DNA of 37,920 nt from a phage (GCA_033178465.1 GCA_033178465.1_4726.4); one strand, 5' to 3'; shown: positions 12,505 to 30,701, counted from the stretch's first letter. Translations and numbers: made by a program. Notes: generated by a model not told the origin, from the sequence alone.

Positions 12505-12519
12505 GTTCGATTCCTCGTA

Positions 12520-12963: not shown

Positions 12964-12993
12964 GGTAGGTTCCTCTTGATAGATGGTAGTAAC

Positions 12994-13013: not shown

Positions 13014-13071
13014 TAAGTCTTTATAACACACCCCAAGCCATATTGGGTACAGGCTCGTTACGTTCGATGAA

Positions 13072-13473: not shown

Positions 13474-13550
13474 TCTAAGCTCCTGTAACGCTCTATAAGC
13501 GTCGTTTTAAGTTAAGGTATAGTTTCCCTTCTTTGGATTCGTTTATTGCG

Positions 13551-13826: not shown

Positions 13827-13866
13827 GATTTCTGTTGTATTTTCCTTTTCGTTTGTTGGTGATGGA

Positions 13867-14166
13867 TTAAGGTTTAGGTTCCGTTTTGTGTTGTGCGAGT
13901 AGTGTGTTGATCTGCTCCCGTTGTTCTTTTAAGCATGCGGGAAGCTGGTCTTCCCGCACCGTTCCGATTTCCAACGTGATGTACCAACGTTGTTCGGAAG
14001 CCTGCCATTGAAAACTGCTCTGTAAACGTAGGATGTTAGGATCGTGTACCTTGCTTGCGCTGTAGCGGTTGAACCAATCCAGGTAAGCTGCTTTCCCCTC
14101 CTCATCGGCAACGTAACGCTGCACGCTGTTCTTCCCTTTGTTTTCGTATCCCGTTGCACGTATCAT
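13867..14166 (-). CDS. Hypothetical small protein (99 aa from ATG 14166)
   Basis: Track ORF 13867-14223 overlaps the upstream gene; the only in-frame ATG (14166) has AAGGAG upstream and removes the overlap. Confidence 0.5.
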   Translation of the reverse strand: MIRATGYENKGKNSVQRYVADEEGKAAYLDWFNRYSASKVHDPNILRLQSSFQWQASEQRWYITLEIGTVREDQLPACLKEQREQINTLLAQHKTEPKP

Positions 14167-14189
14167 GCGAATGTTTCTCCTTGGTTGTA

Positions 14190-14939: not shown

Positions 14940-15190
14940 TTAAAAAGATCCTCTGTTTCACGTTAATTAAACAACGTATTGATTTCTATTCGACAACAAT
15001 ACGAACATTGTCCGTATGCATCATAGAGGTAATATAGCCGTGAAAGGATTTGTGTTACAGAAAGGGTTTTGTTGTGTTTTAAGAAGGGATGGATTTAGAA
15101 GAGGTGTTTCAAGGAAGGTAAACGAGGATGGTTATTTTAATTTAAGTAAGTAAGATGTTATCTGTATTTGTTAAAAGTGTATTGTCCATG

Positions 15191-15254
15191 TTATCTTGTT
15201 TATCTTAGGTTTAATCGTTTTATCTTTGTATGTTTAAGTTGTTTTATTTATCTT
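15191..15254. repeat. Iteron-like TTATCTT heptamer repeats (4 copies)
   Basis: TTATCTT at 15191, 15200, 15220 and 15248. Confidence 0.4.
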
Positions 15255-15738
15255 GTTTGTATATTTAAATTAAATCAATAAGCGTATCTTCAAAACAATG
15301 GATAACATGTGTTTACTACCTTAATGGTAACACATGTCATCTGTGCATTACACTCCGTTATCACTTCGTTACATGCTTATATGTTGGATAACTCAAAAAA
15401 CCATTTGTGATACTCTTCTTCACGTTGTTCATCAGAGTATCTCGTCTATACTCATTGCATTCGTATACGACATAACCGTTATACGCTAACGCTACGCTTA
15501 TAGCTTGATAACTCTAAGGATAAAAACATAAACTCGCTTCGCTCGTTTAGTTTTTCTTTTTCTTAGAGTTATCCTGTTGCTCGTCTCTAAAGGACTTCGC
15601 TCCTCCCCCGTCCCCCGAAGGGGCCGAGGTCGTGGAAATTTTACTTTCCAAATACATTTACAACATCTGTAAACTTTTACTCCAGGTACTTAATCTTATC
15701 ATTAGAAATTATAAAGAGAAGAATAAACACAAACATAA

Positions 15739-15763
15739 ACCTTCCCCCGACCCAACAGGGAAG
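15739..15763 (-). terminator. Intrinsic terminator candidate after gene 15783-16676
   Basis: Stem CCTTCCC / GGGAAGG with 11-nt loop; on the minus strand it is followed by a T-rich tract (complement of 15721-15738). Confidence 0.45.
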
Positions 15764-15782
15764 GAGGAAGGGAGAGATTAAA

Positions 15783-16676
15783 TTATTCGGAAACGTTGTA
15801 ACCGAATACGGCTTTACCGTAGGTGTGGGTACCGTCAGCTAACGACACCACTAGCACATGGTTGTATGTGGCGTTAACACCCTTGTCGGTAGACTCGGTG
15901 GTAGCACCGTTATAGACAAAGGTAGCTGTTTGCAGATTGGCTTTCAGCTCGGTGATGATCTCCTCACTTACACCCGTCTGCTCTTTGATCAGCGTAGTCA
16001 GGTTACCTGCCAGGGTATCATCGATCTTGGTTTCATTACTGGTAATCGCCTGTAAGCCTACAGTGTAGGTGCTGAAGTCTAACGGATAGGTTAACAGACG
16101 TGCTGACGTTTTGGTACCATCGCCTTCATCAACGTAGGTTAAGTTACCCAGGTTGGTAACCTTGATGATGTTAGCCAGATCCAGCGTGGTGTTATAAACT
16201 TTAACTTGAACAGAACCATACCACGCCAACGAATCTTCTTTGGCTTCCAGGGTGATCGTCTGGATACCATGATCGTCGAAGGTAACAGGATTAGCTAACG
16301 TATCGGCTTTGATGTCTTTCGCTTTATCCAGGAACTTCTCACCGGAAGGCGTGATCATACCGTAGCGTTGAGCTACAAGGTCAACCACATCACCGATGGT
16401 GGTGTTCGCTTCAACGTTAACACGTACAGCGATCTTCTGGAACCACTTAGCCAGATCCAGACGATGGTAGGTAACATCGCGTTCATTGAAGTAAGGGGTA
16501 CCTTCACCAGGGCTAAGCGTTAAAGTTGCTTCTGGAGCAGAAGCGCTTTTGGATTTAAGAACGTATTTAAGATCACTGTATTGGAAGCTGGCACCAGTGT
16601 CGGCGTTGAGCTGGTTGATCTCATCAACGATAAGTTGCCAAGGTGTTTTTAAAGTAAGTGAAACTTGAGTTGCCAT
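15783..16676 (-). CDS. Paralog-family protein (297 aa), probable virion structural protein
   Basis: ATG 16676 with GAGGT upstream; shares the motifs TYHRLDL, LVAQRYGM and SLAWYGSVQV with the tandem paralogs at 28896-32515 and with the 180-aa protein; moderately optimised codon usage. Confidence 0.65.
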   Translation of the reverse strand: MATQVSLTLKTPWQLIVDEINQLNADTGASFQYSDLKYVLKSKSASAPEATLTLSPGEGTPYFNERDVTYHRLDLAKWFQKIAVRVNVEANTTIGDVVDLVAQRYGMITPSGEKFLDKAKDIKADTLANPVTFDDHGIQTITLEAKEDSLAWYGSVQVKVYNTTLDLANIIKVTNLGNLTYVDEGDGTKTSARLLTYPLDFSTYTVGLQAITSNETKIDDTLAGNLTTLIKEQTGVSEEIITELKANLQTATFVYNGATTESTDKGVNATYNHVLVVSLADGTHTYGKAVFGYNVSE

Positions 16677-16721
16677 TTTCTACCTCTATGGTTGTTACAT
16701 CACTCTCAAAAGATGTAAGTG

Positions 16722-16750
16722 TTTACAGAAATTAATATATTTTATATTAA
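16722..16750 (+). promoter_or_regulatory. Sigma70-like promoter candidate for gene 16819-17361
   Basis: TTTACA (16722-16727), 17-nt spacer, TATTAA (16745-16750); about 60 nt upstream of the ATG. Confidence 0.35.
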
Positions 16751-16818
16751 TGTAAATAATATGGAGAACGACTCCGAATCTCCTTTTCGACCATCAAAAA
16801 ATCAGAGGACACACAATC

Positions 16819-17361
16819 ATGGCCTTAGACTTTAACAAAGCAGCGAAATCCCTTCTGCTTGATCTTATCAACACCAAAGCGACCCGCACGCTGACCGAAG
16901 AAGAACTGCAGTTCGGTACTCCGGCGGCATCTTCCGAACATTCTAAGAACACCGTTATTCAGCTGGATGCTGCAGTTGGTGCAGAAAACCTGCAGGGTAC
17001 TCAGCAGTTCTACTACGATCGTCTGGCTCTGTCCGACGTTTTCGCTGATGTAACTGGCGATGTTACTTTCGAACTGCCGCACGGTACCGACAGCATCCAG
17101 GCTTCTGAACTGGTAAGCAAGCTGGTCACCAAATTCGGCCTGGCTTCCCTGAACGGTGAAATCAAAGAAGAAACCTTCCAGCTGTCTGCAGGTACTGTTG
17201 CTCAGGTAACTCTGAACGCGATCGAGAATGGCATGGTATATACCGGCACTCTGCAGGTTGCTCTGACCTATGCAGCAGCACCGAAAGATGACCTGGCAAC
17301 CGTTCTGGCGGATAACGTAGCCGATGGCTTCGTGAAACCGACCGTTAGCGTTGTTGGCTAA
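16819..17361 (+). CDS. Highly expressed small paralog-family protein (180 aa), probable major virion component
   Basis: ATG 16819 with AGAGGA upstream; strong bias to CTG, CCG, GGT, AAC and TTC codons (the most host-optimised gene in the window); contains family motifs FYYDRLAL, LVTKFGL and MVYTGTLQV. Confidence 0.75.
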   Translation: MALDFNKAAKSLLLDLINTKATRTLTEEELQFGTPAASSEHSKNTVIQLDAAVGAENLQGTQQFYYDRLALSDVFADVTGDVTFELPHGTDSIQASELVSKLVTKFGLASLNGEIKEETFQLSAGTVAQVTLNAIENGMVYTGTLQVALTYAAAPKDDLATVLADNVADGFVKPTVSVVG

Positions 17362-17560
17362 TAAGCACATAGAGCAATAGTATGGGTTTTGTACAGCTCG
17401 GCTATTGCTCTTCTACAATTTGGTTGTAACAATCTGCGTGGTTGCACGCTTATCTTTCTCATTGAGCGCTTCGTATGAAGCGTGGTGTTGAAAGGGTTGT
17501 GGATCTCCTCAAGCGGCCAGGGACCCAGACCAACCTGAATAAACACGAACACCTATTAAG

Positions 17561-17592
17561 CCCCTCCTCATCCGTTATTGGGTGAGGAGGGG
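17561..17592. terminator. Conserved GGAGG-rich hairpin at convergent junction
   Basis: Perfect 10-bp stem CCCCTCCTCA / TGAGGAGGGG with 12-nt loop; between stop 17361 (plus) and stop 17656 (minus). Confidence 0.45.
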
Positions 17593-17655
17593 TCTTATAC
17601 GTCTTTATGCGTTCCGTTCGTTCTGGAGCGTTTTAGGACGGTTTACTGCAAGGTT

Positions 17656-18291
17656 TTATTCAACACTGAAACCGTTCAAACAGATGGCTTCATAACGCTT
17701 ACGTTCACGACGTTTACGCGCCTGCCAGCCGTAAATGAACTTCTCGTCTTTCTCACGACGTTCCGCTAATTCGATGTAATAGGTGCTCTGCATGTCCAGC
17801 ATCGCATCGATGAGATAATCCTTACCGGTTGCGCCACGCTTAGCGATGTAGGCATCAAGAGCCGCCAGTGATTTGGGACCCATTGCACCATCGGCGTCAA
17901 TATCTTTCCAGTAAGTTTGACGGTTGTTCATGACGTTCAGGTAACGCTGAAGGTTCTTAACCGCAACCGTTTTACCTGCATTGATACCCAGGTCAAAGAG
18001 ACGGTCAGCTAAAAACACAGAACGTTTCATGACTTCGTCAAGTTTCATCTTATCCCAGAAGTGAGTCTTGTAGATAAAGAACGCCATTTCCGTGGTAAGG
18101 TTACGCATGTTACCGTTCCAGCCGAATTTCGTTTTCAGCGTGGTTTTATATTGGTTTGCTAAAGCTTGCGTAATGCCATGGTTCGTACATTTTCCGCTAT
18201 CATCTGGGTCATCAATATACCCGCCTTCAACATCGGTTTTGTCGCGGATGATAAATTCGCAGGTAAAATCTTTTTCAGTAATTTTAGCCAT
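17656..18291 (-). CDS. Endolysin, GH108-type muramidase-like with probable peptidoglycan-binding C-terminus
   Basis: N-terminal VEGGYIDDPDDSGKCTNHGIT matches the conserved EGGY..D..D.G..T..GIT motif of GH108 phage lysozymes; ATG 18291 with GAGGT upstream. Confidence 0.7.
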   Translation of the reverse strand: MAKITEKDFTCEFIIRDKTDVEGGYIDDPDDSGKCTNHGITQALANQYKTTLKTKFGWNGNMRNLTTEMAFFIYKTHFWDKMKLDEVMKRSVFLADRLFDLGINAGKTVAVKNLQRYLNVMNNRQTYWKDIDADGAMGPKSLAALDAYIAKRGATGKDYLIDAMLDMQSTYYIELAERREKDEKFIYGWQARKRRERKRYEAICLNGFSVE

Positions 18292-18302: not shown

Positions 18303-19412
18303 ATGGAGTTACGTGTTTGTAAATGTTGCGGAGTGGAGAAATCTATTATTGAGTTCAAACCTACCACATCCGGGTATTACACAAGAACGTGTAAAAAGTG
18401 TTTGGTGGCATACAAGAAACAATGGAGGAAACTCAACCCAGATAAAGAACGTGCACAAATCAAACGTTATATGGAGAAATGTAAAAACAGAACAGGAGAT
18501 GTTAAGCTGGCTTACATCAGATCGTTGCAACCGGCGCTGCGTGTTAAGGCAAAAATAGACTACCCTGAAAATATTCTTCTCTTACATTGCTTTAAATGCG
18601 ATGGAGTTAAGCCGGTGGATAGTTTTGCTTTGGCTGCTGCTAGACCAACCGGTAGGTCGAATATTTGTCGAGCATGTTTGCAACAACACACCCACAACAG
18701 GAAATATCTCCCTACGGAACAGTTTTATCGGTGCCAACGTTGTGGTAAAACGAAACCAGCCGATCAATTTAGAGATCGATCCTCTGTGATTCGTGGAAAA
18801 CATTCTTACTGTTTAGATTGTGAAAAAGACGTTAAAGAAGAATTGTTGCGACGCAGAACTCCTGAATATCAGATTGAGAAACTAAAAGAGAAAAGTGTAT
18901 TGCTTGCGTGTAAACATGGACTGGATCCGGATAAGCTCTGGAAGAAATGCTCGAGTTGCGGCGAGATAAAACGACCATCCGATTTTTCTCGCAATTGCCG
19001 TGCAATAGATGGATACCAGTCTATTTGTAAACACTGTCGCTCGGCCAGTAGCGAAACATTCGCTGGATTCAGGAGACGTATCCATGCCGCCGTCGGTCAT
19101 GCGACGACCGTTGGTAAACTAACACGTCCTGATACATGCGAAGAGTGTGGCTGTAACGCATACACTGAGGCACACCATGACAACTATCTTAAACCTTTCG
19201 ATGTTCGCTGGTTATGCCGTAGCTGCCATCGTAAAGTCCATTTGAATTACGTATTTGTTGAAATACGTTATTTCAAGGAAAAAGGTTTAACGGTTGAAGA
19301 AGTTGTGCGTCGAGCTTACCCTGACGCTTTTGATTGGGTGGTGGTTAACCCGGAAGATAAGAATGCGCTAGTTATCGTCCGAGTACCACCACAGTTACGA
19401 GAGTTAGATTAA
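18303..19412 (+). CDS. HNH endonuclease with four N-terminal zinc-ribbon-like repeats (homing-endonuclease-like)
   Basis: C-terminal CEECG...HHDNY...WLCRSCHRKVH HNH motif; four repeats of C-x2-C-G-x2-K-x4-F...C-x2-C; visibly AT-richer than neighbours; opposite orientation to both flanking genes; start only 11 bp from the endolysin start. Confidence 0.7.
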   Translation: MELRVCKCCGVEKSIIEFKPTTSGYYTRTCKKCLVAYKKQWRKLNPDKERAQIKRYMEKCKNRTGDVKLAYIRSLQPALRVKAKIDYPENILLLHCFKCDGVKPVDSFALAAARPTGRSNICRACLQQHTHNRKYLPTEQFYRCQRCGKTKPADQFRDRSSVIRGKHSYCLDCEKDVKEELLRRRTPEYQIEKLKEKSVLLACKHGLDPDKLWKKCSSCGEIKRPSDFSRNCRAIDGYQSICKHCRSASSETFAGFRRRIHAAVGHATTVGKLTRPDTCEECGCNAYTEAHHDNYLKPFDVRWLCRSCHRKVHLNYVFVEIRYFKEKGLTVEEVVRRAYPDAFDWVVVNPEDKNALVIVRVPPQLRELD

Positions 19413-19570: not shown

Positions 19571-21619
19571 TCAAATACCTTTGGTTCCCTTCACGTGATG
19601 TGCGATTTCTTCAACCATTGCACGCAGGGCACGAAGCTGTTGGTCGTGTTCGTACCAACCGCCTAACAGAACCCCGCTATACACCATGGTGTCAAGACTT
19701 AACAGTCCTTTATCTGATACGTTGATCATTTCAGGGAACTGTTCTTGAACACGCTGTGCGATAACACCGATCTTCTCGACATCAGGATCGTAGTTGTGAC
19801 GGAAACGGGCAAGCCCGCTGCGCGCCATTTCGCGTAAACGTTCACTGAGAGATTCCGGATGATCTTTCAGATAACGAATGTCGTGTTTACTACGCTCATC
19901 TGAACGGATGTAAGCGTTAGGAACATCGATGTTGCTGTTGAAGTACAGCGCACTACCACCGCCTGCAGAGTTCCCCCAATAGAAGCGTGTGATCTCACCG
20001 CCGCCATTTTCCGTGATGATAACATGTTTACCTAAACGCGTACCACCGTTACCATCAACGAAGACCAGTTTGTTTCCGCTGTAAGAACCCCAGAACAAGC
20101 GTGTATCGATGATGTGTGTTGCAGCGAGACGGGCGTTACGTGGTGTAGAATACACGGTGTTAACATCTTGCTGCGCATGTGCATCGGAAGCGATACCATA
20201 GTTCTGTACGTTACCCAATCCCACCTGCGCTTTTGTAACAGCATGCGGGTTATCCCGACGGTTAGCGTGAGCGTTAACCAGATCACCCGCTAATTTCTGA
20301 ATTGCCCAGTTGGTAGACTGTGGTGTCATGTAACGGTTCGTTGCAGAACCACCTTGCGCTTCAGCTTGGTTAGCGGTTGGGTAGTTCTCAACACTTCCTA
20401 ACCCTACTTGTGCCTTAGACACTTGGTGTGGGTTATTCTTATCGGCGATGTGTGCATTAAGCGGAACTAACGCAAAGGTCTCAATGGACGCTTTGGTTGT
20501 GTTCGGTGCCATTAATCGGTTAGCTGCAACACCAGCACGCGCTTCTTCTTCAGAAGCCATTGGGTAGTCTTGCACATTCCCTAACCCAACCTGTGCTTTG
20601 GTCACCCTGTGTGGGTTGTTGTAATCGGCTTTATGCGCATTAAGCGGAATCAGTGCGAACTGTTCAATCGCTGCAACAGTACGTAGCGGCGTCATGAAAC
20701 GGTTGTTCGCTGTACCCGCTTTTGCTTCAGAGTCCGACGCTGTCGGGAAGTTATCAACGTTCCCAAGGTTAACCTGTGCTTTGGTGACGCTATGCGGGTT
20801 ATCCCGGCGGTTAGCATGCGCGTCGACCAGATCGCCTGCCAGTTTAGCAATCGCCCAGCCAACCGTCTGTGCTGTCATGTAACGGTCAGGTGCAGTACCG
20901 GCTTCTGCCTCCGCCTTGTTTGCGGTAGGGTAGTTCTGTACGTTACCTAGTCCGACTTGGGCTTTTGTTACTTCGTGCGGGTTATCGGTACGGTTAGCAT
21001 GTGCGTAATGCAGATCGGTCAGATCTTTATCCGCCGCTTGCATGTCTTTGCGTAGCTGATCGATTGCCGCCCAGAGACGGTTATCGGACGCAGCATCACC
21101 GATAAGTATTGCAGCTTTTAACGAATAGATCGCTAAGCAAAGATGCTCGGTACCGTAGATGGCGCTAACGTGGTGGATGTGTGGTTCAGGCGGATAGAGT
21201 TCTGGTTTGTTCTTGATGTCGTCCCAGTTGATCGGACGATCGTCAAGTTTGAGTTCTTCGATAGCCTGATATAACGCGTCAATAAGACTTACGTAAACAC
21301 CACCGATGATACGATAGTCGTTAACTAACGTACCCTCGATATCATCGTTGATGATGGCGATGGCTGCACAGATTTCTTTACCAGCGTAAAGCGTAGCGTC
21401 CTGATACAAGAAGATGGGCTTATAATCCACGCCTCGTACCAGTGTCTTACCGGTAAGCTTTTCAGTGATGACCAGACTTTCGGTGAAGAACGGTCCGCCA
21501 TCAAGGGCGTAACATTTATTCTCGGTTCGTGGAACGGTATGCTCTTCACCAACGATGTGGTTGCTGGCGAGTGTACCGGTCCAGTCCTCGGGGTACTTCA
21601 GGGTAATTGGTGTCGACAT
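19571..21619 (-). CDS. Tail fibre protein with about five tandem 61-aa repeats and C-terminal intramolecular-chaperone (peptidase S74-like) domain
   Basis: Five repeats with core NPHxVTKAQVGLGNVxNY...YMTP; C-terminal SDERSKHDIRYLKD...GLLSLDTMVY matches the self-cleaving chaperone domain known from endosialidases and L-shaped tail fibres; N-terminus similar to gene 25306-27459. Confidence 0.8.
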   Translation of the reverse strand: MSTPITLKYPEDWTGTLASNHIVGEEHTVPRTENKCYALDGGPFFTESLVITEKLTGKTLVRGVDYKPIFLYQDATLYAGKEICAAIAIINDDIEGTLVNDYRIIGGVYVSLIDALYQAIEELKLDDRPINWDDIKNKPELYPPEPHIHHVSAIYGTEHLCLAIYSLKAAILIGDAASDNRLWAAIDQLRKDMQAADKDLTDLHYAHANRTDNPHEVTKAQVGLGNVQNYPTANKAEAEAGTAPDRYMTAQTVGWAIAKLAGDLVDAHANRRDNPHSVTKAQVNLGNVDNFPTASDSEAKAGTANNRFMTPLRTVAAIEQFALIPLNAHKADYNNPHRVTKAQVGLGNVQDYPMASEEEARAGVAANRLMAPNTTKASIETFALVPLNAHIADKNNPHQVSKAQVGLGSVENYPTANQAEAQGGSATNRYMTPQSTNWAIQKLAGDLVNAHANRRDNPHAVTKAQVGLGNVQNYGIASDAHAQQDVNTVYSTPRNARLAATHIIDTRLFWGSYSGNKLVFVDGNGGTRLGKHVIITENGGGEITRFYWGNSAGGGSALYFNSNIDVPNAYIRSDERSKHDIRYLKDHPESLSERLREMARSGLARFRHNYDPDVEKIGVIAQRVQEQFPEMINVSDKGLLSLDTMVYSGVLLGGWYEHDQQLRALRAMVEEIAHHVKGTKGI
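20190..21010 (-). repeat. Tandem in-frame repeats, about 183 bp period, 5 copies (tail-fibre repeat)
   Basis: Recurrent plus-strand block resembling GTTCTG-ACGTT-CC-A-CC-AC-TG-GCTTTGGT-AC at about 20198, 20383, 20567, 20750 and 20933. Confidence 0.75.
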
Positions 21620-21632
21620 AACCTGGAGGTCC

Positions 21633-24236
21633 TTATAACGTGACTGTACCTAATTTGGTTGTCTTATTGAGATTAATGACAGAGATCTGGGTATCGCTGG
21701 TCGTGATGGTGCCAATATTAACACGTTGTCCTTTATCATCTTCTTGCTTGTAGATGGTTAACTCCAGTTCTAACTGGTCGCCATTAGGAACAACGGAAAC
21801 GTACCATGTTTTATTACCCGGGGAGCTATTATAGTCTTTTAGGTTATAATGGCCTTTAGGTAAGGTCATGACCTTACCGGCAAACAAGCAAGTGATGTCT
21901 TCGTTGATGTAGATATCGTAGCCGGAAGCAGCAACGACCGTAGAAACCATGTAACGGTTTTTAACGGCGAGAGCTTTATATTCCGCGACGGAATTGCCCA
22001 CGACATTAAAGACTTGACCGCCATTTCCCATCACCGTAGAGACTGCGGTATCAACATAACCGATTCCCCACACCGGATGCACGTTCCAACGATAGCCGTT
22101 TGTCTGTAGGTAAGCATACATCCCTTCAAATGCGATGGTTGTCCAGTTTCCATCGTTCTGCCGTCCAGCTCGGAACTGATAGGTGTTTTGATTTCCTGCA
22201 GACTGACGGGAACACGGAACGTGCCCAGCAACAAGCCATCCATCACTCACCTTCTTGTACGCGAGTACGCCCCACGCAACATCTTGAGTTCCGATATTTG
22301 ATGTATCGCCGTCTTCGACATAACCCAGCAGTTTGGTTACGCCTGTCACGGTGATAGCGCCTTTACGTGCGGATACGGTAACCTCCGCGGCGATTCGTCC
22401 ATGTACGCGTGTTTCGGTATTACAACCAACAACAAACAGAATACAGGGTGCGTTCGTACCGTCTGGAGGTACCGCTAACGCATGCCGCCACCGACTTACC
22501 CCTGATAACTTAGATCCTGTATATGCGTTCCACACAAGCTGACCACCTGCTTGCAGATTCGCTGCGGTTATGCTGATAGCTTCTCCGGAAGGCGTAAGTT
22601 TGGTTGCGTCGTAACCTATTTTGTTTGTTAGGATCACATCGGTTAAATAAGACCCGCTAACTACCGTATTATCGTCGCTTAAATGCACGGTTAGGAAAGG
22701 TAACGACATTTGACCTGTTCTAACCACCACGTTGTTGGAAGGCGGGAAACCGTAAACATCAATACCCTCGCCTTGATAATGGTAGTTGAGGTCCCAGTCA
22801 TAGGTCACTAGACGAGCCTCAAAATTACCCTGTCCGCCACCCGTACGTGAGTTAACGAAAACCTTGTTTTTAGAAAAGAAACCCAGGTAACCATGGGACG
22901 CCAGTGCGCCTACGACACGATCACCGACGTTTTTCCAGTATGAATCGTACTGTATTCCACCAGTAGGACCGAGTTTGGCGAGTTCGTCGAACACGTTTCC
23001 AGAGAAACCGTTGATAGTGTACGATCGCGCTTGGGGGGCGGATAAGTTGTCGTTTTGGATAATGGCTACCTGACCACGTTCGTTGATTTCGATATTCCCG
23101 GTACCGTTACCCGAACCCCATTGCCAGAAACCGTCGTTATATCCGCTTGTCCCTTCCGTTGTGTTGGAAGGTCCTATCCAATCAATACCACTGCTGGTCG
23201 ATGTGTAGGTCGATTGTCCAGCGCCAGGGTTCATGCTGTAACTGTTGTTGGTGGTTTCAAAATCCAAATAGAACTGATGCAGCCCGTTTTTAGATCGGTT
23301 GTTACGGTTGTTCGTCCACCACGCCGAAGCAATCAGAATACGTGCTTTAGTACCTTTGGTTGCTGCGAACATACGAATCTGAGCACGCCAGACGGTTTGA
23401 CCGATCCCGTCAGAAGGGAAATCGTTCGTAGTTATACGGTTGCAGACAATCATCTCGGCACTGTTGCTTATCGCCGTTCCTTCTATCGTTCTACCGCTAA
23501 TATTCGTAAGCTGTGTAGCTGCTACGCTGCCACCGCTGGGACCGATGGAAGATTTCGTTACGGTATAAACATTTAAGTAGAGTTTATAACTGTTAGTGCC
23601 AGCAATAGCGATGTAGATTTTACCGTTAATTTCCCAACAGCAGACATTCGGTGACGTATCAACAAAGTTGGCAAGACTACCATCAAGATACATGGCGACA
23701 TGTTTGGATGCGTCAAACGTTCCGTCTGTCAATGCGATAAACATTTTAGGGCTGCTACCGTCTTCAAAAGCAGCTTGACCTAACATGATACCGTTCTGGT
23801 GACAGTATATCACCGTAGGAATACGATCGAGCGTTGCGGGCTCATAGCGACGGCTGGTTGGAATAACTTCAGTGATCTGTCCGTTTTGATTTGTTTTACA
23901 GATAACGTAGTAAACCCCTTTCTTTACGCTGTTCGTTGCCGAACGCAGTAACACGATAGTGCCGTCGGATTCACGGCATACGCCGTAACGACGGTATTTG
24001 TCGTTTAGACAGATAGCACCATCAGCGGAGCCTTCAATTGCCAGAGGAAAATAACTTTGGTCCCCAACCTGTTCGATATCGGTTACGCCAATATCGATAT
24101 ATTTTTCCATCTCAGCGTTGAACTCAGCGGTACTGTAGGCCCCAAGATCGCTCGCTTTCAGTCCCGTTGGGTTGTCGCGACTGGCGATACGCGTATTAAC
24201 GCTACTCACCAGTTCGCTGAACTTTTTCATTGCCAT
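21633..24236 (-). CDS. Large tail fibre or tailspike-like protein (867 aa), putative receptor-binding protein
   Basis: Lies between the fibre genes; N-terminal KKFSELVSSVNTRIASRDNPTGLKASD resembles the N-termini of the two small downstream genes; Gly/Ser/Thr/Asn-rich beta-type composition; ATG 24236 with GAGGTG upstream. Confidence 0.55.
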   Translation of the reverse strand: MAMKKFSELVSSVNTRIASRDNPTGLKASDLGAYSTAEFNAEMEKYIDIGVTDIEQVGDQSYFPLAIEGSADGAICLNDKYRRYGVCRESDGTIVLLRSATNSVKKGVYYVICKTNQNGQITEVIPTSRRYEPATLDRIPTVIYCHQNGIMLGQAAFEDGSSPKMFIALTDGTFDASKHVAMYLDGSLANFVDTSPNVCCWEINGKIYIAIAGTNSYKLYLNVYTVTKSSIGPSGGSVAATQLTNISGRTIEGTAISNSAEMIVCNRITTNDFPSDGIGQTVWRAQIRMFAATKGTKARILIASAWWTNNRNNRSKNGLHQFYLDFETTNNSYSMNPGAGQSTYTSTSSGIDWIGPSNTTEGTSGYNDGFWQWGSGNGTGNIEINERGQVAIIQNDNLSAPQARSYTINGFSGNVFDELAKLGPTGGIQYDSYWKNVGDRVVGALASHGYLGFFSKNKVFVNSRTGGGQGNFEARLVTYDWDLNYHYQGEGIDVYGFPPSNNVVVRTGQMSLPFLTVHLSDDNTVVSGSYLTDVILTNKIGYDATKLTPSGEAISITAANLQAGGQLVWNAYTGSKLSGVSRWRHALAVPPDGTNAPCILFVVGCNTETRVHGRIAAEVTVSARKGAITVTGVTKLLGYVEDGDTSNIGTQDVAWGVLAYKKVSDGWLVAGHVPCSRQSAGNQNTYQFRAGRQNDGNWTTIAFEGMYAYLQTNGYRWNVHPVWGIGYVDTAVSTVMGNGGQVFNVVGNSVAEYKALAVKNRYMVSTVVAASGYDIYINEDITCLFAGKVMTLPKGHYNLKDYNSSPGNKTWYVSVVPNGDQLELELTIYKQEDDKGQRVNIGTITTSDTQISVINLNKTTKLGTVTL

Positions 24237-24248
24237 TATTCACCTCGA

Positions 24249-24734
24249 TTAAATAGGCGAGTCGGGTAGCTGACCATCATCGATCTCGATGGTGGCCACC
24301 TTACGTGTTGCAGCAAGATGTGATGTACCCTGGATTTTGTTCCAGGTGCCGATACGCATGGCGTTTTTGTAGCTGCTATCGCTATCGTTCAGCGTGTAAA
24401 CAAAACCGCTATCGGTTACGGCAAGATAGATCCAGCCTACAGACTCACTGATGCCCGACACGTCCAAAGTTGCTGCTGGTACCGTCCCTACCACCGTGTT
24501 GTATTCCGCTGTACCTTGACCAATGCTGATCCGTCCGTTGCTGTAAGTGGCTGCCGGAAGCGTTTTATTTCGACTGAAGAAAAGAAACGGAAGGTAACGC
24601 TGAGTAACAAGCGGTGCAAGTTTAGAAGCCACTTCGGTCTTAACGTAGACATCTGTTTGTGCTGGCGTTACCTCGTGAGGGTTCTTTTGGGTAAGATACG
24701 TCCCCCATTCAGAAAGCAGTGTTGATAGCTTCAT
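24249..24734 (-). CDS. Small fibre-associated protein (161 aa) with N-terminal NPHEVTPAQ docking-like motif
   Basis: N-terminus MKLSTLLSEWGTYLTQKNPHEVTPAQTD copies the repeat core of the large fibres; paralog of 24739-25248. Confidence 0.55.
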   Translation of the reverse strand: MKLSTLLSEWGTYLTQKNPHEVTPAQTDVYVKTEVASKLAPLVTQRYLPFLFFSRNKTLPAATYSNGRISIGQGTAEYNTVVGTVPAATLDVSGISESVGWIYLAVTDSGFVYTLNDSDSSYKNAMRIGTWNKIQGTSHLAATRKVATIEIDDGQLPDSPI

Positions 24735-24738
24735 GCGG

Positions 24739-25248
24739 TTACCCCATGTAACGTTTTTGGCCGAGGATGAAGACTTTGTTAAATACCACCGAAGTGATTC
24801 CTGTTGCGTTACAGCTCACCTGCCCGACGCGAATTGCTGTTGATGTATCGACCCCAGCGCTACTCTGCCAGATCCAATCGATCGATCCGTCTTTCTGACG
24901 AATGAAAAGATAACCGGTTTTGTTCGCCCAGTCGGAAGTAAGTTTTTTGATGTCTAGCGTTCCTTTCGCCAGAATATAGTCGGTACCCGCAATCATGACG
25001 GGTATTTCAGGATACGAGATCACCGTACCGCTAGCAGTAACGTTGCTGATGCGATCACTACGAATATCGGTACAATCACCGAAATACGCTACGGGGAGTA
25101 TCCCCTTAGGTAGCTTTTTGCCGATTCTCGTATCGATCGTGTTTTTATCGGGTGCATCGATTTGTGCTGCGGTGACTTGGTTAGGGTTATCCTTCCTTGC
25201 GTACCATGTCGTCATGCGAGCACCCAATTCACTCATTTTTGTGCCCAT
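24739..25248 (-). CDS. Small fibre-associated protein (about 169 aa) with N-terminal DNPNQVTAAQ motif
   Basis: Track ORF begins at GTG 25254; ATG 25248 has AGGA upstream; N-terminus MSELGARMTTWYARKDNPNQVTAAQID. Confidence 0.55.
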   Translation of the reverse strand: MGTKMSELGARMTTWYARKDNPNQVTAAQIDAPDKNTIDTRIGKKLPKGILPVAYFGDCTDIRSDRISNVTASGTVISYPEIPVMIAGTDYILAKGTLDIKKLTSDWANKTGYLFIRQKDGSIDWIWQSSAGVDTSTAIRVGQVSCNATGITSVVFNKVFILGQKRYMG

Positions 25249-25261
25249 TTTCACATCCTAT

Positions 25262-25300
25262 CGAAAAATAAAAAGAAGGAAAGGTGGGTAGAACCCACCC
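25262..25300 (-). terminator. Rho-independent terminator after tail-fibre gene 25306-27459
   Basis: Stem GGTGGGT / ACCCACC with short loop; on the minus strand it is followed by a long T-rich tract (complement of 25262-25282). Confidence 0.7.
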
Positions 25301-25305
25301 ATCCG

Positions 25306-27459
25306 TTATAACGTTTCGAAGTCGGTTGCTTTGATAACCGCGTTGAAGTTGGCAAGGAATTCCTTAAGCAGTGCTTGGAAGACATCACGAAACGCCGTGT
25401 TCGTCTGCAAGCTGGTTAAATAATCGTTCTTAAGGTAATCACTCAGCTTACCGATCTTCTGCATCTTCTCGCCGTCTTGGTTCTCTCCAGGTTCTTGGCT
25501 GTTGATGTTAACCCATTTGATCCCTTCGAGATCGCCATCGGCAAGGAAGTTAGCGGGCGTCTCATCGTCGTTCAGGATTTTAATTGTGTCGCTGGATTCA
25601 ATGCCACCGTAAGCTTCCAGAAGCTGGTTGACTGTTAGCGTGTTGGTGTTGATTGAACCATTGACACCATCAATACCGATGCCTGCACCTGTGATGGATG
25701 TCGCCGAAAGATCGATCGGTCCGGTTAACTTACCACCGTTGATCGGTAACGCACCAACTTGCTCAGCGGTGTGGGTGTGGTTGGCTAACGCCGCAAATGC
25801 CACAATTGACTTGTAAGTCGAGTACGGTGTCATGTACGTCGTTTGGTTAGTCTTGTCGGCAGCTTGCGTGTCGGTGGCGACAGTAAAGTCCTGCACGTTC
25901 CCCAGACCAACTTGAGCCTTGGTTACACCATGGGGGTTGCTCTTATCGACAACGTGTGCTGCAAAACCATCACCTGCTAAAGCGATGATTGCCGCTTTTG
26001 TCGCAGCCGGTGTCATATAGCGGTTGGTTGCTTCACCCGTTTGCGCCTCTTCGTCGGAAGCAACAGGATAGTTCTCAACGCTCCCCAAACCGACCTGAGA
26101 TTTTGTTACTTGGTGTGGGTTTTCGGTATTCGCGATATGACTACTGAACCCTTGACCAGCCAGTTGCTCGATTGCGTAACGAACAAGTATTGGCGTCATG
26201 TACTTGTTGTTAACCTGACCATCGATAGCTTCTTGGGTGGTGGCAACCCCGAAGTTTTGCACGCTCCCCAACCCAACTTGAGCTTTCGTAACAGCGTGGG
26301 GGTTATTGGTGTTACCGATGTGATCGGTAACCGTTGGGGTGATTAATCCTGCGATAGCGGCTGCCGTGGTCGCAGGGGTCATGTATTTATCGTTAGCAAC
26401 ACCCGCAGCAGCTTCTACGTTAGATGCTACACCGTAGTTCAATACATTTCCTAACCCAACTTGAGCTTTGGTTACCCCGTGGGGGTTGTTCTTGTCTCCG
26501 GTATGGGTTGTCAACGTAGCGTTAACGTTATCGATACGCGTGCTTAAGCCATCGGTGATTGCTTTGATTGCGGCTCGTACACCCGCTGGTGTCGTGTACA
26601 GATTGGTGGCCGTACCGGTAATGGTTGCATTACTATCGGCTGTACCGTAGTTCTCAACGTTTCCGAGTCCCACCTGGGCTTTAGTTACCTTGTGTGGGTT
26701 GTTGTAGTTGCTGATGTGCGCAGCAGCACTATCACCACTCAGGTTAGCGATCATCTTACGCGTCATCGCCAACGTCATGTACAGATTTTCACCGATGGTT
26801 TCCAGATCGCTCTCGGTCGCCGTTGTGAAGTTCTGAACATTCCCCAATCCAACTTGAGCCTTGGTTACACCATGGGGGTTATCGCGACGATTCTCGTGTT
26901 GTAGCAATGCGGTCATTGCTTTATTGAACCCTTCTTCAAGCGGTTCTTTCAATGATTCGATTGCCGCCACCACATCGTCCCACGTCATTGTGTCGGTTTC
27001 GACATTATGTTGGTGGTTGATTGGCGGGAATACGGAAGGAACGTCAGCAACCTTTTCCCAGAACGTAACGCGGGGATCGTAAAGGTTGTTGGCTAAAACG
27101 TTAAGAATTTGTTGTTGATCAAGTGTAAACTCACCCCCCAGTGAATAGTAGTTCAGTTGCAACTGTCCACTGAATGCGGTGTCCAACAGCATGATGGAAC
27201 CGTATAATTCCAGGCCGGTCAGCGCAGCCATGGCACGGAAGGGGTGAGTGCATAAAAAGTCAACGCCTTCTTCCAGATACGCGTTTGTTTCAGGGTTGTA
27301 GATCTTTAACCCATTACGAAAATATGGCGCGTATTTAGGAACGAGAAAGTTAAATCCGGTCCCCGTGGAAGGACGGACAGTGACGAGTTCTTCTGGAACC
27401 CATGCGCCATCCAAATTCCCCTGCGGGTTATACGGAAGGCGTTTAATTTCATCTGTCAT
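25306..27459 (-). CDS. Tail fibre protein with about six tandem 61-aa repeats (717 aa)
   Basis: Six repeats with core NPHxVTKAQVGLGNVxN...YMTP; N-terminal domain similar to gene 19571-21619; no S74 domain at the C-terminus. Confidence 0.75.
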   Translation of the reverse strand: MTDEIKRLPYNPQGNLDGAWVPEELVTVRPSTGTGFNFLVPKYAPYFRNGLKIYNPETNAYLEEGVDFLCTHPFRAMAALTGLELYGSIMLLDTAFSGQLQLNYYSLGGEFTLDQQQILNVLANNLYDPRVTFWEKVADVPSVFPPINHQHNVETDTMTWDDVVAAIESLKEPLEEGFNKAMTALLQHENRRDNPHGVTKAQVGLGNVQNFTTATESDLETIGENLYMTLAMTRKMIANLSGDSAAAHISNYNNPHKVTKAQVGLGNVENYGTADSNATITGTATNLYTTPAGVRAAIKAITDGLSTRIDNVNATLTTHTGDKNNPHGVTKAQVGLGNVLNYGVASNVEAAAGVANDKYMTPATTAAAIAGLITPTVTDHIGNTNNPHAVTKAQVGLGSVQNFGVATTQEAIDGQVNNKYMTPILVRYAIEQLAGQGFSSHIANTENPHQVTKSQVGLGSVENYPVASDEEAQTGEATNRYMTPAATKAAIIALAGDGFAAHVVDKSNPHGVTKAQVGLGNVQDFTVATDTQAADKTNQTTYMTPYSTYKSIVAFAALANHTHTAEQVGALPINGGKLTGPIDLSATSITGAGIGIDGVNGSINTNTLTVNQLLEAYGGIESSDTIKILNDDETPANFLADGDLEGIKWVNINSQEPGENQDGEKMQKIGKLSDYLKNDYLTSLQTNTAFRDVFQALLKEFLANFNAVIKATDFETL
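25880..26930 (-). repeat. Tandem in-frame repeats, about 180-190 bp period, 6 copies (tail-fibre repeat)
   Basis: Recurrent plus-strand block at about 25888, 26075, 26253, 26438, 26650 and 26830; source of the repeated antisense pseudo-ORFs in the track. Confidence 0.75.
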
Positions 27460-27563: not shown

Positions 27564-28844
27564 ATGTATACATTGGTAAAAACTTACGGATTACCCGTAG
27601 GTTCTGGCACGGCCTGGACAGCGCTTGAGGCGGGTGAAAGTGTCCTGAGTACGTTGTTCTCAACGTATCAAAAACTCAAGATCCAGGTCCATGAAAGTTA
27701 TGCTGATCAGCAACAAGTTATTGATCTGTACGCGTTCCAATCCGAGCTTCAAAACAGTAGCGATACGCTTAATGCGTGGCTGAAGGCGAAATCGGATGCG
27801 CACACCAACCTTCGAGGACAGCCTGGTGAACTGTCGATTAAAACCCACAAGCTTTATTGCCATGACGTTGTTACTGTAGGCTTTCTCCCTAAAGTCGGTA
27901 ATAGCGGTTATCATCCGAGCAACGCGATCCCTGAGTCGGAACGCACCGATATCCTGTTGACGAAAGCGAATACGAATTACGAAAATATCGGCAAACACTG
28001 CTTGTTCACCGTAGGCGGTTATGTTCATCCTCACGTCTACGGTAAAGACGTTGGTGTCTATATCCAAGGTGGGTTCAAGACGGCACAGCGTAGCCAAGAA
28101 AACGATATCGGCATGATTGATTTTAGCCGTATCGGGAGTTTGGAAATCCATGCTATCACAGAAGAGATGATTGCTGATTCCACGAAGCTCTTGCCGTATA
28201 AGGACGAGATGTACTTGCGGTTACCGCGAAAGGTCGCCGAAGATGAAACCGTCGCGCTGGTGTTCGGGGGATATTTACATCTTCTTGACGATTGTTACAC
28301 GATCGTTAGTGACACGACAGCGAAAATAAACTGCATTAACATGTTTCTTTATGAAAGATACTTCCGTTCCCGCAAATACCTTGATCTAACATCTCTTGGT
28401 ATTCTGTTGACTGAGGAAGACCCACAGTCCGACATTGTTGCCAATCGTTTATTGTCCGATAAAGCATTAAAAGCGTGGGTGACGCATCCTTGCAGTTTCT
28501 GGGTGTATATCAAAGCAACATCAATTCAGGTTACACAAGAACCTTTGCCACGAAGTGGTGTACCAGGACAATATTTCTTAGGTAAGAAACCGGAAGGATT
28601 GATTCGAGCTGATCTCGGCGAGTTACCGGCTTACGTGCAGACCTATGAAAAACCGTTATGGGTACTTCACTCGCGCTGGGGACTTCGTAAAAACATGCTG
28701 TTTGAAAACACATTGTACAAACATACCCGCGTTAAGCGGCTTAACGATACGCCTTATCTTCACCAGGTCTGGTTGGAAACGCATGCAACGTTGCAGACAG
28801 TACACAAGCTTGAATTGATCGATTCCAGTCAGAAAAACAAATAA
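27564..28844 (+). CDS. Hypothetical protein (426 aa), lone plus-strand gene inside the structural block
   Basis: ATG 27564 with AGGGGG about 9 nt upstream; no motif recognised. Confidence 0.6.
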   Translation: MYTLVKTYGLPVGSGTAWTALEAGESVLSTLFSTYQKLKIQVHESYADQQQVIDLYAFQSELQNSSDTLNAWLKAKSDAHTNLRGQPGELSIKTHKLYCHDVVTVGFLPKVGNSGYHPSNAIPESERTDILLTKANTNYENIGKHCLFTVGGYVHPHVYGKDVGVYIQGGFKTAQRSQENDIGMIDFSRIGSLEIHAITEEMIADSTKLLPYKDEMYLRLPRKVAEDETVALVFGGYLHLLDDCYTIVSDTTAKINCINMFLYERYFRSRKYLDLTSLGILLTEEDPQSDIVANRLLSDKALKAWVTHPCSFWVYIKATSIQVTQEPLPRSGVPGQYFLGKKPEGLIRADLGELPAYVQTYEKPLWVLHSRWGLRKNMLFENTLYKHTRVKRLNDTPYLHQVWLETHATLQTVHKLELIDSSQKNK

Positions 28845-28895: not shown

Positions 28896-29801
28896 TTATG
28901 CTACATATAACGTTAGATAACCATCGATGAGCGTATTCATCACACTGAGTTGGAGTACGACAGCTTTACTAACATCCGTACGTACACCGAACGGTAGTGT
29001 TTTGAATTGCTCTGGATCGGCTATTACTTGCGCATTCTGCAAGTTGAGCGGTCCAGGCACTGCTGACAGTACCCAGCGATCGTTGACCATAAGGCCGTCG
29101 ATCTCTTCAGAGAGACCCAATTGCAGTGTGTTCATTTCTGCGATTAGTGCCTCCGATTGCGTATCGCCCGAGGTTAACGTATATCCATCGGTAAGTGATG
29201 CCAGAACACCAGCAGATACGAACCAGTTGTACGAAACAATAGCGCCTGGGAGTTTACTGCTATCTCGATCGATGATATAATTCAACCCAGCCAACATATT
29301 GTTGCGAACGAGGTTGTTGAGGTCGTTATGTCCTGAGGTTAACTCAACAAGTAACTGACCAACCCATACTTGGTTACCGGGTTTAGGTGTTATCACAACC
29401 TGTATCGGTGACTTGGACTTATCCAGATCCGCGTCGACAATCTCGGTTTTGTTGAGAAGGATACCGTACGTCGATGCTAAGACAGGTAATATCTCAGAGA
29501 CCTTGGTTAATGCATCTAAGGTTTCGATCTCGATGGGCCAGTGGTGCTGTCCGCCAGACCAAGTACCCAGTTTACCAAGATCGATGCGGTTATAATAGAT
29601 GTCGACAGAGTTCACCAGCCCTGAACCCGGTTGGGGATGCACGGTTAACTTGCTGTTACGCTTGTACCCTGTGCTTTCAGAAGCTTCACCGATAACCAGT
29701 TTATCCAGCGTTACGCCTCGAGCATCGAAATCGCTATGCTTTCGAATCAGCCGAAAGAGGATTTCTTTCGATTCTAACCCCAGGATTTCACTGTACTCCA
29801 T
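28896..29801 (-). CDS. Paralog-family protein (301 aa), probable structural
   Basis: ATG 29801 with AAGGGG upstream; family motifs YYNRIDLG, LASTYGILL and VWVGQLLV. Confidence 0.65.
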   Translation of the reverse strand: MEYSEILGLESKEILFRLIRKHSDFDARGVTLDKLVIGEASESTGYKRNSKLTVHPQPGSGLVNSVDIYYNRIDLGKLGTWSGGQHHWPIEIETLDALTKVSEILPVLASTYGILLNKTEIVDADLDKSKSPIQVVITPKPGNQVWVGQLLVELTSGHNDLNNLVRNNMLAGLNYIIDRDSSKLPGAIVSYNWFVSAGVLASLTDGYTLTSGDTQSEALIAEMNTLQLGLSEEIDGLMVNDRWVLSAVPGPLNLQNAQVIADPEQFKTLPFGVRTDVSKAVVLQLSVMNTLIDGYLTLYVA

Positions 29802-29816: not shown

Positions 29817-30701
29817 TTACGGTAGGATTTCTGCGCCCGTCGGGCCTGCCTTACGAGCTTCCAACGCACCAAGGTCGTATTTCAATGTCAGCGTATCGTT
29901 GGTAGTATAAAGGTTGTGGTAAGTCGAAATCAGATCGGTAACCTGCGCACCGACGATTTCGTTCATGTCGAAGGCCGAACCTTGACCATCATCAGCACGA
30001 ATGATTTTATCGCCCGCAGAGACCATCCCAATTTCAGAAATAACCGCGTACTCTTCACCACCTTCGGTGAGTTTAGCCACATTGAGATATTCGTTAATAT
30101 CCCACGGCGTCCAAACCAAAGAGACTTTACAGCTGTAGTCGTAGTACTCTCCGGTCGCTACCAGAATTCCGGTTGTTGGAATATCTGGTCGGGTGGGGTT
30201 GAGGTTTGCGTCGGTTGGATGCCATTCGATGGTCTGAGCGACGCCGTCGACGTATTTGGTATAACGCATGGAGCGGACAACGTTATCGAAATCGATGCGA
30301 CGACCGTAATAACAGATATACTTTTTACCGCTTTCCAGTGTCTCAATACGACGTAACCCAAATTTAGCGCGTTCGTCTGTGGTCAAATCGTTACCAACTT
30401 CACGCATCACGAACGGCTTGATTTTCCACGGTGAAAGATCGCTTGCTTCGTGAGCGATCGGCATCGAGGAAGGGATACCGTTAGCGTTGCGGATAAATTC
30501 ATGACCTTGGTTGCCGATACAGAAGTAACGTACAGCAGGATTACCCTCGGGGTAAACCTTTGATTGAATCTGAAGCTTTTCATTCAAGGTGCTGTGTTCT
30601 TCCCATGCATGAGGAAGACCGAGCGTAAGGTTAGTTTGTACTTGACCGCCGATAATCGTACGGACGATACGATCGGTAGCACGGATTTGTGTAGAAGCCA
30701 T
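29817..30701 (-). CDS. Hypothetical protein (294 aa), possibly a divergent member of the paralog family
   Basis: ATG 30701 with AGGAAA upstream; weak family-like motifs YYGRRIDFDNV and VSLVWTPW at similar spacing; membership uncertain. Confidence 0.55.
   Translation of the reverse strand: MASTQIRATDRIVRTIIGGQVQTNLTLGLPHAWEEHSTLNEKLQIQSKVYPEGNPAVRYFCIGNQGHEFIRNANGIPSSMPIAHEASDLSPWKIKPFVMREVGNDLTTDERAKFGLRRIETLESGKKYICYYGRRIDFDNVVRSMRYTKYVDGVAQTIEWHPTDANLNPTRPDIPTTGILVATGEYYDYSCKVSLVWTPWDINEYLNVAKLTEGGEEYAVISEIGMVSAGDKIIRADDGQGSAFDMNEIVGAQVTDLISTYHNLYTTNDTLTLKYDLGALEARKAGPTGAEILP

Follow-up and report, generated by a model that had tools for sequence, protein, structure and literature searches.

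Two repeat-bearing genes in a Goslar-like phage

We analysed a stretch of phage DNA of 37,920 nucleotides (GCA_033178465.1_4726.4, referred to here as the window) and concentrated on the region from 19571 to 27459, in which two long minus-strand genes, each containing tandem repeats, enclose three further genes. The two genes are called fibre genes A and B below, and both were found as open reading frames (ORFs) over the intervals given in Table 1. The region is 95.5% identical in DNA sequence to Escherichia phage vB_EcoM_Goslar, a nucleus-forming jumbo phage of 237 kb (genus Goslarvirus, Chimalliviridae), and Goslar was the only near match in the phage collection. The order of genes in the window is the same as that of Goslar from gp24, which encodes an endolysin, to gp30, and the five proteins of the region are 95.7 to 99.6% identical to Goslar gp25 to gp29, by which names the orthologues are also called here.

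Table 1. Features of the fibre gene region in window coordinates
Feature	Position	Strand	Evidence
Fibre gene A, 682 residues, orthologue of Goslar gp25 (YP_009820710)	19571..21619	-	ORF; 99.6% protein identity to gp25; matches phrog_2163 and phrog_13857
A: gp131-like N-terminal anchor domain and linker, residues 1-208	20996..21619	-	BLASTP to phiKZ gp131/133/134/135
A: five tandem 61-residue units, residues 209-513	20081..20995	-	unit profile, each E 2e-26 to 8e-32
A: glycine-rich distal tip, residues 514-572, predicted C-terminus of the mature fibre	19904..20080	-	inferred; flanked by unit 5 and the S74 domain
A: Peptidase_S74 intramolecular chaperone, residues 573-682, predicted self-cut at Ser573	19571..19903	-	Pfam PF13884
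Fibre gene B, 717 residues, orthologue of Goslar gp29 (YP_009820714)	25306..27459	-	ORF; 97.4% protein identity to gp29
B: gp131-like N-terminal anchor domain and long linker helix, residues 1-189	26893..27459	-	BLASTP to phiKZ gp131; AlphaFold2
B: six tandem units, residues 190-564, of 60, 71, 61, 61, 61 and 61 residues	25768..26892	-	motif positions; unit profile
B: degenerate terminal half-unit NHTHTAEQVGAL and C-terminal domain unrelated to that of A, residues 565-717	25306..25767	-	half-unit profile
867-residue protein (Goslar gp26): N-terminal half-unit at about residues 15-50 (nt 24087-24194), then predicted beta-propeller body	21633..24236	-	half-unit profile; AlphaFold2/Foldseek
161-residue protein (Goslar gp27): half-unit start KNPHEVTPAQ, at about nt 24612-24689	24249..24734	-	half-unit profile
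171-residue protein (Goslar gp28): half-unit start KDNPNQVTAAQ, at about nt 25105-25203	24739..25254	-	half-unit profile
426-residue phiKZ gp130 homologue, divergent from gene B	27564..28844	+	BLASTP, E 6.9e-26 over 343 residues

The repeats are old, in frame and coding

A preliminary description of the window, made from its sequence, had reported two tail-fibre genes containing five to six tandem repeats of about 61 residues, in frame and with a period of about 183 bp. Both the number and the period of the repeats stood up. The tripeptide Asn-Pro-His (NPH) that opens the core of the repeat occurs in A at residues 213, 274, 335, 396 and 457, giving spacings of 61, 61, 61 and 61, and in B at residues 194, 254, 325, 386, 447 and 508, giving spacings of 60, 71, 61, 61 and 61. 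Self-identity of the proteins peaked at a lag of 61 residues, with 155 matches in A and 133 in B versus 54 ± 3 and 61 ± 3 in shuffled controls (z = 34 and 22); the 867-residue neighbour, gp26, gave z = 1.2 at the same lag. Self-identity of the DNA peaked at 183, 366 and 549 bp (0.40 and 0.35 versus a median of 0.25), and all copies lie in the frame of their gene. The core, which had been described as an invariant NPHxVTKAQVGLGNV, is present in all 11 units but proved to be only nearly invariant, reading NPHxV[TS]K[AS]QV[GN]LG[NS]V.

When the 11 whole units were compared in pairs, they were 33 to 67% identical in protein and 60 to 74% identical in DNA. Tandem Repeats Finder, run on the window, reported no array in either fibre gene, the divergence between DNA copies being too great. 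The array is an old coding repeat that has been kept by selection. Taken by itself, a period of 183 bp could also come from an element acting at the level of the DNA, such as a satellite or an array resembling clustered regularly interspaced short palindromic repeats (CRISPR), with the ORFs arising by accident. However, the copies match over 88 to 237 nt, are contiguous, in frame and translated, and show no pattern of conserved repeat and unique spacer; they are better conserved as protein than as DNA, peptides from the arrays are among those listed for Goslar virions in a 2026 preprint, and the repeat has thousands of protein homologues. The low DNA identity, the translated repeats and the protein homologues refute a DNA-level element, to which we give practically no chance, and a CRISPR array is ruled out for the same copies being diverged in DNA, coding and conserved as protein, just as the preliminary description had held. 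That description had also attributed antisense ORFs to the repeats. Antisense ORFs of 50 to 101 residues do lie in the arrays, but the longest of the region (173 residues, 23055-23576) falls in the non-repetitive 867-residue gene, so such ORFs do not arise specifically from the repeats.

The N-terminal domains belong to a jumbo-phage fibre-anchor family

The N-terminal domains of A and B are 24% identical over 131 residues (E = 8e-11), and both align with the N-terminal portion of shared PHROG profiles. In BLASTP searches, B matched phiKZ gp131 (E = 1.3e-42) and A matched phiKZ gp135, gp131, gp134 and gp133 (E = 1.5e-31 to 2e-21). A tblastn search with the N-domain found 287 phage records, essentially all of them from phiKZ-like jumbo phages and among them PhiPA3 gene 150, and in a scan of the Goslar genome the N-domain profile matched the equivalent of A with an E value of 1.4e-47. 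No family for the domain was found in Pfam or NCBIfam. On these sequence comparisons, we place the N-domains of A and B in the fibre-anchor family of phiKZ gp131. The seven-bladed propeller that forms the C-terminal domain of gp131 was not detectable in A or B, the alignments stopping at about residue 330 to 345 of gp131.

The gene adjacent to B, and divergent from it, encodes a homologue of phiKZ gp130 for which Pfam held no family; phiKZ and PhiPA3 are arranged alike. In the phiKZ atlas, six gp131-like N-domains (three of gp131 and one each of gp133, gp134 and gp135) and a six-helix bundle form a fibre base, which lies beneath gp130 at the outer rim of the baseplate.

In Goslar, gp25 and gp29 were detected in purified virions and are labelled "Tail fiber" in the mass-spectrometry table of the preprint, passages of which call them likely components of peripheral baseplate or tail fibres that were not resolved; neither those passages nor the Goslar record describe the repeat architecture. 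Together with the phiKZ gp131-family N-domains, this label on the orthologues bears out the earlier proposal that A and B are tail fibres. One might nevertheless place these fibres elsewhere on the virion, at the collar, the whiskers or the head or in a "fibre cloud" of DUF7941 proteins, given that the density of gp25 and gp29 is unassigned in the preprint's account of Goslar and that DUF7941 genes lie close by in the window. Such a location is extremely unlikely in our estimation: the N-domain has its homologue in the phiKZ fibre base, which was docked in baseplate density, the gene pair is syntenic with gp130/gp131, and in the preprint passages gp126 accounts for the Goslar collar filaments and DUF7941 proteins, unrelated to A and B, for the fibre cloud.

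Three genes of the window, at 28896-29801 (-), 29817-30701 (-) and 16819-17361 (+), encode the orthologues of Goslar gp31 and gp23, both DUF7941 proteins, and of gp32, a DUF7208 protein. According to the preprint passages, gp32 is a baseplate "spoke" in the Goslar model, the DUF7941 proteins make up the proposed fibre cloud, and the copy number of gp23 is estimated to exceed 1,400 per virion.

Copy number and the arrangement of the two proteins

Table S4 of the preprint gives label-free estimates of copy number (low/median/high) of 57.7/86.7/136 for gp25, 50.1/75.3/118 for gp29, 8.5/12.8/20.1 for gp26, 9.2/13.8/21.6 for gp27, 9.5/14.3/22.4 for gp28 and 12/18/28 for gp30, all of them rough: proteins of 48 to 60 known copies were estimated at 55 to 179. 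By these figures, gp25 and gp29 are about equimolar, each at about six times the level of gp26 to gp28.

Given the near 1:1 stoichiometry and the presence of exactly two N-domain paralogues in the Goslar genome, a hetero-hexameric base is attractive. By analogy with phiKZ, whose fibre base is a hetero-hexamer of paralogous N-domains with a six-helix bundle, gp25 and gp29 would then be parts of one composite fibre, in which three chains of each (3+3) would contribute six N-domains and a six-helix bundle to every docking site and two shafts with different tips would emerge from it. In both proteins, a long helix separates the N-domain from the first unit (in B, as modelled by AlphaFold2). However, the idea comes purely by analogy, and the abundance ratio on which it draws is subject to the spread of the label-free estimates; we keep the composite fibre as a tentative possibility that has something less than even odds, the other arrangement being two independent fibres, each a homotrimer.

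The distal ends differ and appear exchangeable

The related N-termini and different C-termini of the preliminary description were both recovered, the C-termini of A and B showing no similarity (E = 8.3). Pfam PF13884 ("Chaperone of endosialidase", Peptidase_S74) matched A with 26 bits versus a cutoff of 22, residues 573 to 631 covering profile positions 1 to 56 of 58, whereas B gave no Peptidase_S74 match and its C-terminal domain of about 150 residues matched nothing in Pfam or NCBIfam. In the AlphaFold2 model, the C-terminus of B is of low confidence and contains no propeller. In A, a glycine-rich tip of about 60 residues precedes the S74 domain, which begins with Ser-Asp (S573-D574) directly after the tip. 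A match to phrog_1699 ("long tail fiber distal subunit") covers residues 405 to 672 of A, whose tip and chaperone resemble the end of that family.

Among the Goslar virion peptides listed, which are part of the preprint's table, peptides from the shaft of A are present and the S74 peptides AMVEEIAHHVK and DHPESLSER are absent, which is weak evidence for their removal. The C-terminal peptide ATDFETL of B is present, so the end of B is not cleaved off. The peptide data are therefore consistent with self-cleavage of A at Ser573 and with no cleavage of B.

We found arrays of 3 to 13 units, mostly 6 to 9, in 120 homologues, with a dominant period of 61 residues and a C-terminal remainder of 22 to 592 residues. 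A divergent relative (L002, a Logan contig of 101 kb from SRR33371455, with the genes at 10001-17775) holds all five genes in the order B, A, gp28, gp27, gp26, with the A-type gene beside B and the unit counts of six and five unchanged. Its A-type fibre is 64% identical to A up to about residue 493, inside unit 5, and then continues into another C-terminus without S74. Comparison with Goslar showed that 13 of the 19 substitutions between B and gp29 fall in unit 6 (residues 505-541), and that A and gp25 have three differences only, all in unit 2. A recombination patch or selection on a surface may explain the cluster in unit 6. Two close relatives (P0001 and P0002) likewise differ mainly in unit 6 of B. 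The overall pattern is consistent with distal ends being swapped through recombination inside the final units. As for the "common shaft" proposed for the two proteins, A and B have the same kind of shaft, but each carries an array of its own.

Anatomy and spread of the 61-residue unit

To define the unit, we aligned 616 copies from the 120 homologues, taking only those whose successor starts exactly 61 residues on. N5, P6, H7, L16, V19 and H60 were conserved in 98 to 99% of these units, and G15, A25, T41, G33, Q13 and N21 in 92 to 95%. There are thus two invariant histidines per unit, which form an H-x7-H pair across the unit boundary (for example, AHANRRDNPH); the second of them, eight residues upstream of the NPH histidine, was absent from the preliminary description. 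In 117 further representative proteins, a histidine stood exactly 8 residues upstream in 667 of the 810 NPH cores and 9 residues upstream in 93.

A profile of the 11 units matched 9,977 cluster representatives among 1.84 billion at E ≤ 1e-3, 3,114 at E ≤ 1e-10 and 624 at E ≤ 1e-30, and 480 records of the phage genome collection, their hosts including Escherichia, Salmonella, Pseudomonas, Erwinia, Bacillus and Lactococcus, match the repeat. The core H-x7-NPHxVTKxQ[VI]GL..V.N was found with a 34-residue period in a YomR-like protein of Bacillus phage SPbeta and twice in ORF180, a FelixO1 tail-fibre protein. Curated families gave a different result. The repeat array had no match in Pfam (Phage_fiber_2, PF03406, included) at E 0.01 or, with isolated segments, even at E ≤ 10, and no meaningful match in NCBIfam; the precomputed Pfam assignment was blank for almost all of the 120 homologues. 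Sequence searches of the PDB returned spurious L18e matches only for full-length B and a sub-threshold match to T4 gp34 only for the unit profile, and full-text literature searches on the motif found no useful description. The comparison with known fibre-repeat families that had been suggested earlier thus yielded no Pfam or NCBIfam family, but a possible likeness of fold to T4 gp34 and gp12 did emerge.

This likeness came from an AlphaFold2 model of the B monomer (119 sequences), with a mean predicted local distance difference test (pLDDT) score of 70. The model has a beta-rich N-domain (pLDDT of about 90 for residues 11-110) and a helix at residues 160-190, and every unit is predicted to consist of a coil (NPH...GLGNV), a short strand, a five-residue helix (A..EA), a second short strand (YM) and, from T41-P42 to the conserved H60, a helix some 20 residues in length. 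In the 71-residue unit, unit 2 of B, the additional 10 residues are an insert inside the predicted long helix (H291-321, 31 residues). Alignment of unit-length variants with hmmalign likewise put most insertions in the long helix, beyond profile position ~54, although this output was noisy; a heptad or hendecad coiled-coil register was dropped as a candidate because the output was too noisy for it. The best PDB matches of the model in Foldseek were phage fibres, namely, a baseplate chain of Klebsiella phage KP1 (E = 3e-5), T4 gp12 (5iv5_AI, E = 5.6e-5; 5lye, E = 0.013) and T4 gp34 (5nxh, E = 0.09). Five gp34 repeats align in a single register, though without significance, to unit positions 24 to 46 (A25, E29, G33, T41 and P42).

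Conservation of six positions in 98 to 99% of units goes beyond what is usual for purely structural repeats and could be taken to mean that the units are independently folding, lectin-like modules for multivalent ligand binding and not a shaft, with the invariant residues making up the binding site. Against this, phages whose hosts are unrelated (among them Bacillus SPbeta, Lactococcus TP712, FelixO1-like phages and Pseudomonas phages) carry the same core in their fibres, which argues against a shared ligand. Furthermore, a unit is predicted to be coil and long helix, with no compact hydrophobic domain, and the best fold matches are fibre shafts. We therefore consider ligand-binding modules to be very unlikely.

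The intervening genes share a half-unit with the fibres

The arrays of many homologues are closed by a terminal half-unit, H.....NPHxVTAAQVGAY..(E/Q).D..L. A profile built from 65 such segments, none of them from the window, matched five ORFs of the window only: A, B, gp28 (E = 2.6e-9), gp27 (E = 6.6e-6) and gp26 (E = 2e-4). In gp26, gp27 and gp28 the half-unit lies at the N-terminus, and the three N-termini are mutually similar. The motif is kept in the gp26 to gp28 orthologues of the divergent relative, and 17 orthologues of gp26, with identities as low as 34%, all have it unchanged in the form RIAS..NP.GL.A.D...Y. When the complete Goslar genome was scanned in six frames, the anchor domain and the 61-residue units turned up in gp25 and gp29 alone, and the half-unit in gp26 to gp28 alone. 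Passages of the Goslar preprint place gp26, gp27 and gp28 in virions, with the gp28 peptide DNPNQVTAAQIGAPDK among those seen. Because gp26 to gp28 start with the half-unit, we regard all five genes, A, gp26 to gp28 and B, as one host-recognition module, a link that the preliminary description had not made.

The body of gp26 was modelled by AlphaFold2 as all-beta, and Foldseek matched it to beta-propellers of GH43 glycosidases and neuraminidases (E = 3e-5 to 1e-3), making gp26, as far as a predicted structure can suggest, a candidate glycan-binding or glycan-cleaving receptor-binding protein. We found no protein in which anchor and shaft are fused to a gp26 body: all 28 relatives found were stand-alone proteins of about 865 residues, and fusions were suggested only by the remote PHROG 3573 profile.

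Some features of the surrounding genes should be recorded here. The mechanically assigned start of the gp28 ORF is a GTG two codons upstream of the ATG used in Goslar (171 versus 169 residues), and the ATG is probably the true start. An ORF of 369 residues (18303-19412, +), with repeated segments resembling zinc-finger or HNH endonucleases (Pfam Stc1; PHROG endonuclease and endonuclease VII families), separates the endolysin gene from fibre gene A and is encoded on the strand opposite to A. Goslar has a 126-bp spacer at this place, and the flanks of the ORF align with Goslar up to the insertion point; the ORF is probably a homing-endonuclease insertion. Elsewhere in the Goslar genome (NC_048170, 98471-102861, outside the window) are an unrelated tail fibre resembling P1 gpS (gp90, 1324 residues) and a Caudo_TAP assembly chaperone (gp89), both without NPH units, so that Goslar has at least three kinds of fibre genes.

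A model of the two fibres

We interpret A and B as paralogous outer-baseplate fibres of a Goslar-type chimallivirus, each with an anchor, a shaft, a half-unit and an exchangeable distal end, and we put the probability of this reading at roughly 0.8. The anchor, a beta-rich gp131-family N-domain of about 150 residues with a helix of about 30 residues, would hold each fibre under the neighbouring gp130 homologue. The shaft would be formed by the five or six tandem units, whose Thr-Pro-capped helix of about 20 residues would run along the axis, probably in a three-helix bundle; we infer the trimeric state and the formation of this bundle. Each axial helix would end in the invariant histidine and be followed, eight residues on, by the Asn-Pro-His of the VTKAQVGLGNV turn of the next unit, and the shaft would give way to the terminal half-unit. 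At the distal end, fibre A would carry a small glycine-rich tip, matured by Peptidase_S74 self-cleavage at Ser573, and fibre B an unrelated domain of about 150 residues, which would stay on the virion. The number of units would set the reach of a fibre and the distal ends what it binds. The anchor-less proteins gp26 to gp28, each with its half-unit first, would accompany the virion in fewer copies, and one would be a glycosidase-like beta-propeller.

Several points weigh against this interpretation. The tail-fibre density is unassigned in Goslar by cryo-electron microscopy (cryo-EM) and, as far as the passages of the preprint cover the matter, no experimental structure shows these fibres. The AlphaFold2 model is of a monomer, with a pLDDT of about 56 to 60 around the NPH motif, and the oligomeric state and packing lie beyond it. 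Foldseek template modelling scores are meaningless for such extended chains, the match of the unit profile to T4 gp34 (9x3r) was non-significant (E = 2.9), and the link to gp34 and gp12 thus rests on fold and local pattern. Finally, cleavage of A rests on two peptides missing among those listed.

The finding of two repeat-bearing fibre genes is correct and largely ordinary, in that the genes were already annotated in Goslar and the gp131-like family was known. What had not yet been described is the 61-residue unit, its pair of histidines and the half-unit on three anchor-less virion proteins. In recent cryo-EM atlases, the tail fibres are the one part of Goslar, and by and large of phiKZ, for which no model could be built. 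A domain map consisting of a gp131-type anchor, a countable 61-residue unit, a half-unit and a tip with or without S74 is a template for fitting fibre density and for engineering nucleus-forming jumbo phages with altered fibre length or host range. A curated family for the unit, which has about 10,000 cluster representatives and no Pfam, NCBIfam or PDB entry, would improve the annotation of phage proteins now called "hypothetical", and the conserved histidine pair offers a simple, testable hypothesis of metal-stabilised fibres.

Comparison with known fibres

Peptidase_S74 domains act as intramolecular chaperones in fibres and spikes such as the K1F endosialidase and the L-shaped fibre protein pb1 of T5. 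A has such a domain at its C-terminus, whereas B does not, and the A-type fibre of the divergent relative bears another C-terminus.

T4 gp37 contains HxH iron-binding sites. The parallel, an analogy only, is that histidines return at fixed intervals in that trimeric fibre as they do in the arrays here, and the half-unit of B reads HTHT; the spacing differs, being HxH in gp37 and H-x7-H here, where metal binding is putative. Given that the H-x7-H pair is invariant, that H60 closes the predicted axial helix and that gp37 offers this parallel, we suggest that the pair may bind metal. A broader joint reading would make H-x7-NPH an uncurated and very widespread trimer "knot" with an axial metal and the isolated half-unit (gp26, gp27, gp28 and phiKZ gp132) a "plug". 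Two histidines per chain, six per layer, would hold a metal ion on the axis, giving five to six metal staples per shaft, and separately encoded receptor-binding proteins would dock onto the fibre system through the plug, so that a branched adsorption apparatus would be built from one motif. As a whole, we think this joint reading speculative and unlikely.

The fibres of the SPbeta YomR-like and FelixO1 types have the H-x7-NPHxVTKxQ[VI]GLxxVxN core in common with A and B, both histidines included. They differ in a shorter period (34 residues in SPbeta), because the half of the unit with the G....YMTP helix is missing, in their other N-terminal anchors and in belonging to non-jumbo phages.

In the repeat of T4 gp34 and gp12, a glycine turn is followed by a strand, a five-residue helix, a variable loop, a short strand and a helix capped by Ser/Thr-Pro, which packs into a three-helix bundle along the axis of the trimer (Granell et al. 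2017, PMC5537660). This order of elements matches that predicted by AlphaFold2 for every unit of B, and the register A..E...GT.....TP is common to both repeats. The T4 units are about 33 to 47 residues long with a four-residue axial helix, whereas the unit here has 61 residues and a predicted helix of about 20; the H-x7-NPHxVTKAQVGLG connector is not among the features of the gp34 repeat described in PMC5537660. Because the order of elements, the Foldseek matches and the single register agree, we read the 61-residue unit as an extended repeat of this kind: on the predicted structure, it looks like a gp34/gp12 variant with a longer axial helix and an added, histidine-bearing connector.

The closest relatives in overall design are the phiKZ proteins gp131 and gp133 to gp135, which have the same anchor domain followed by NPH units and a terminal half-unit, as here. 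They carry one to two units each versus five to six in A and B, and phiKZ has four anchor-bearing paralogues versus two here. It also has a small anchor-less paralogue, gp132, of 110 residues with one unit. The seven-bladed propeller marks gp131 proper and not its paralogues gp133 to gp135, whereas in the phage studied here a predicted propeller forms the body of a separate protein, gp26, and recalls the propeller at the end of gp131.

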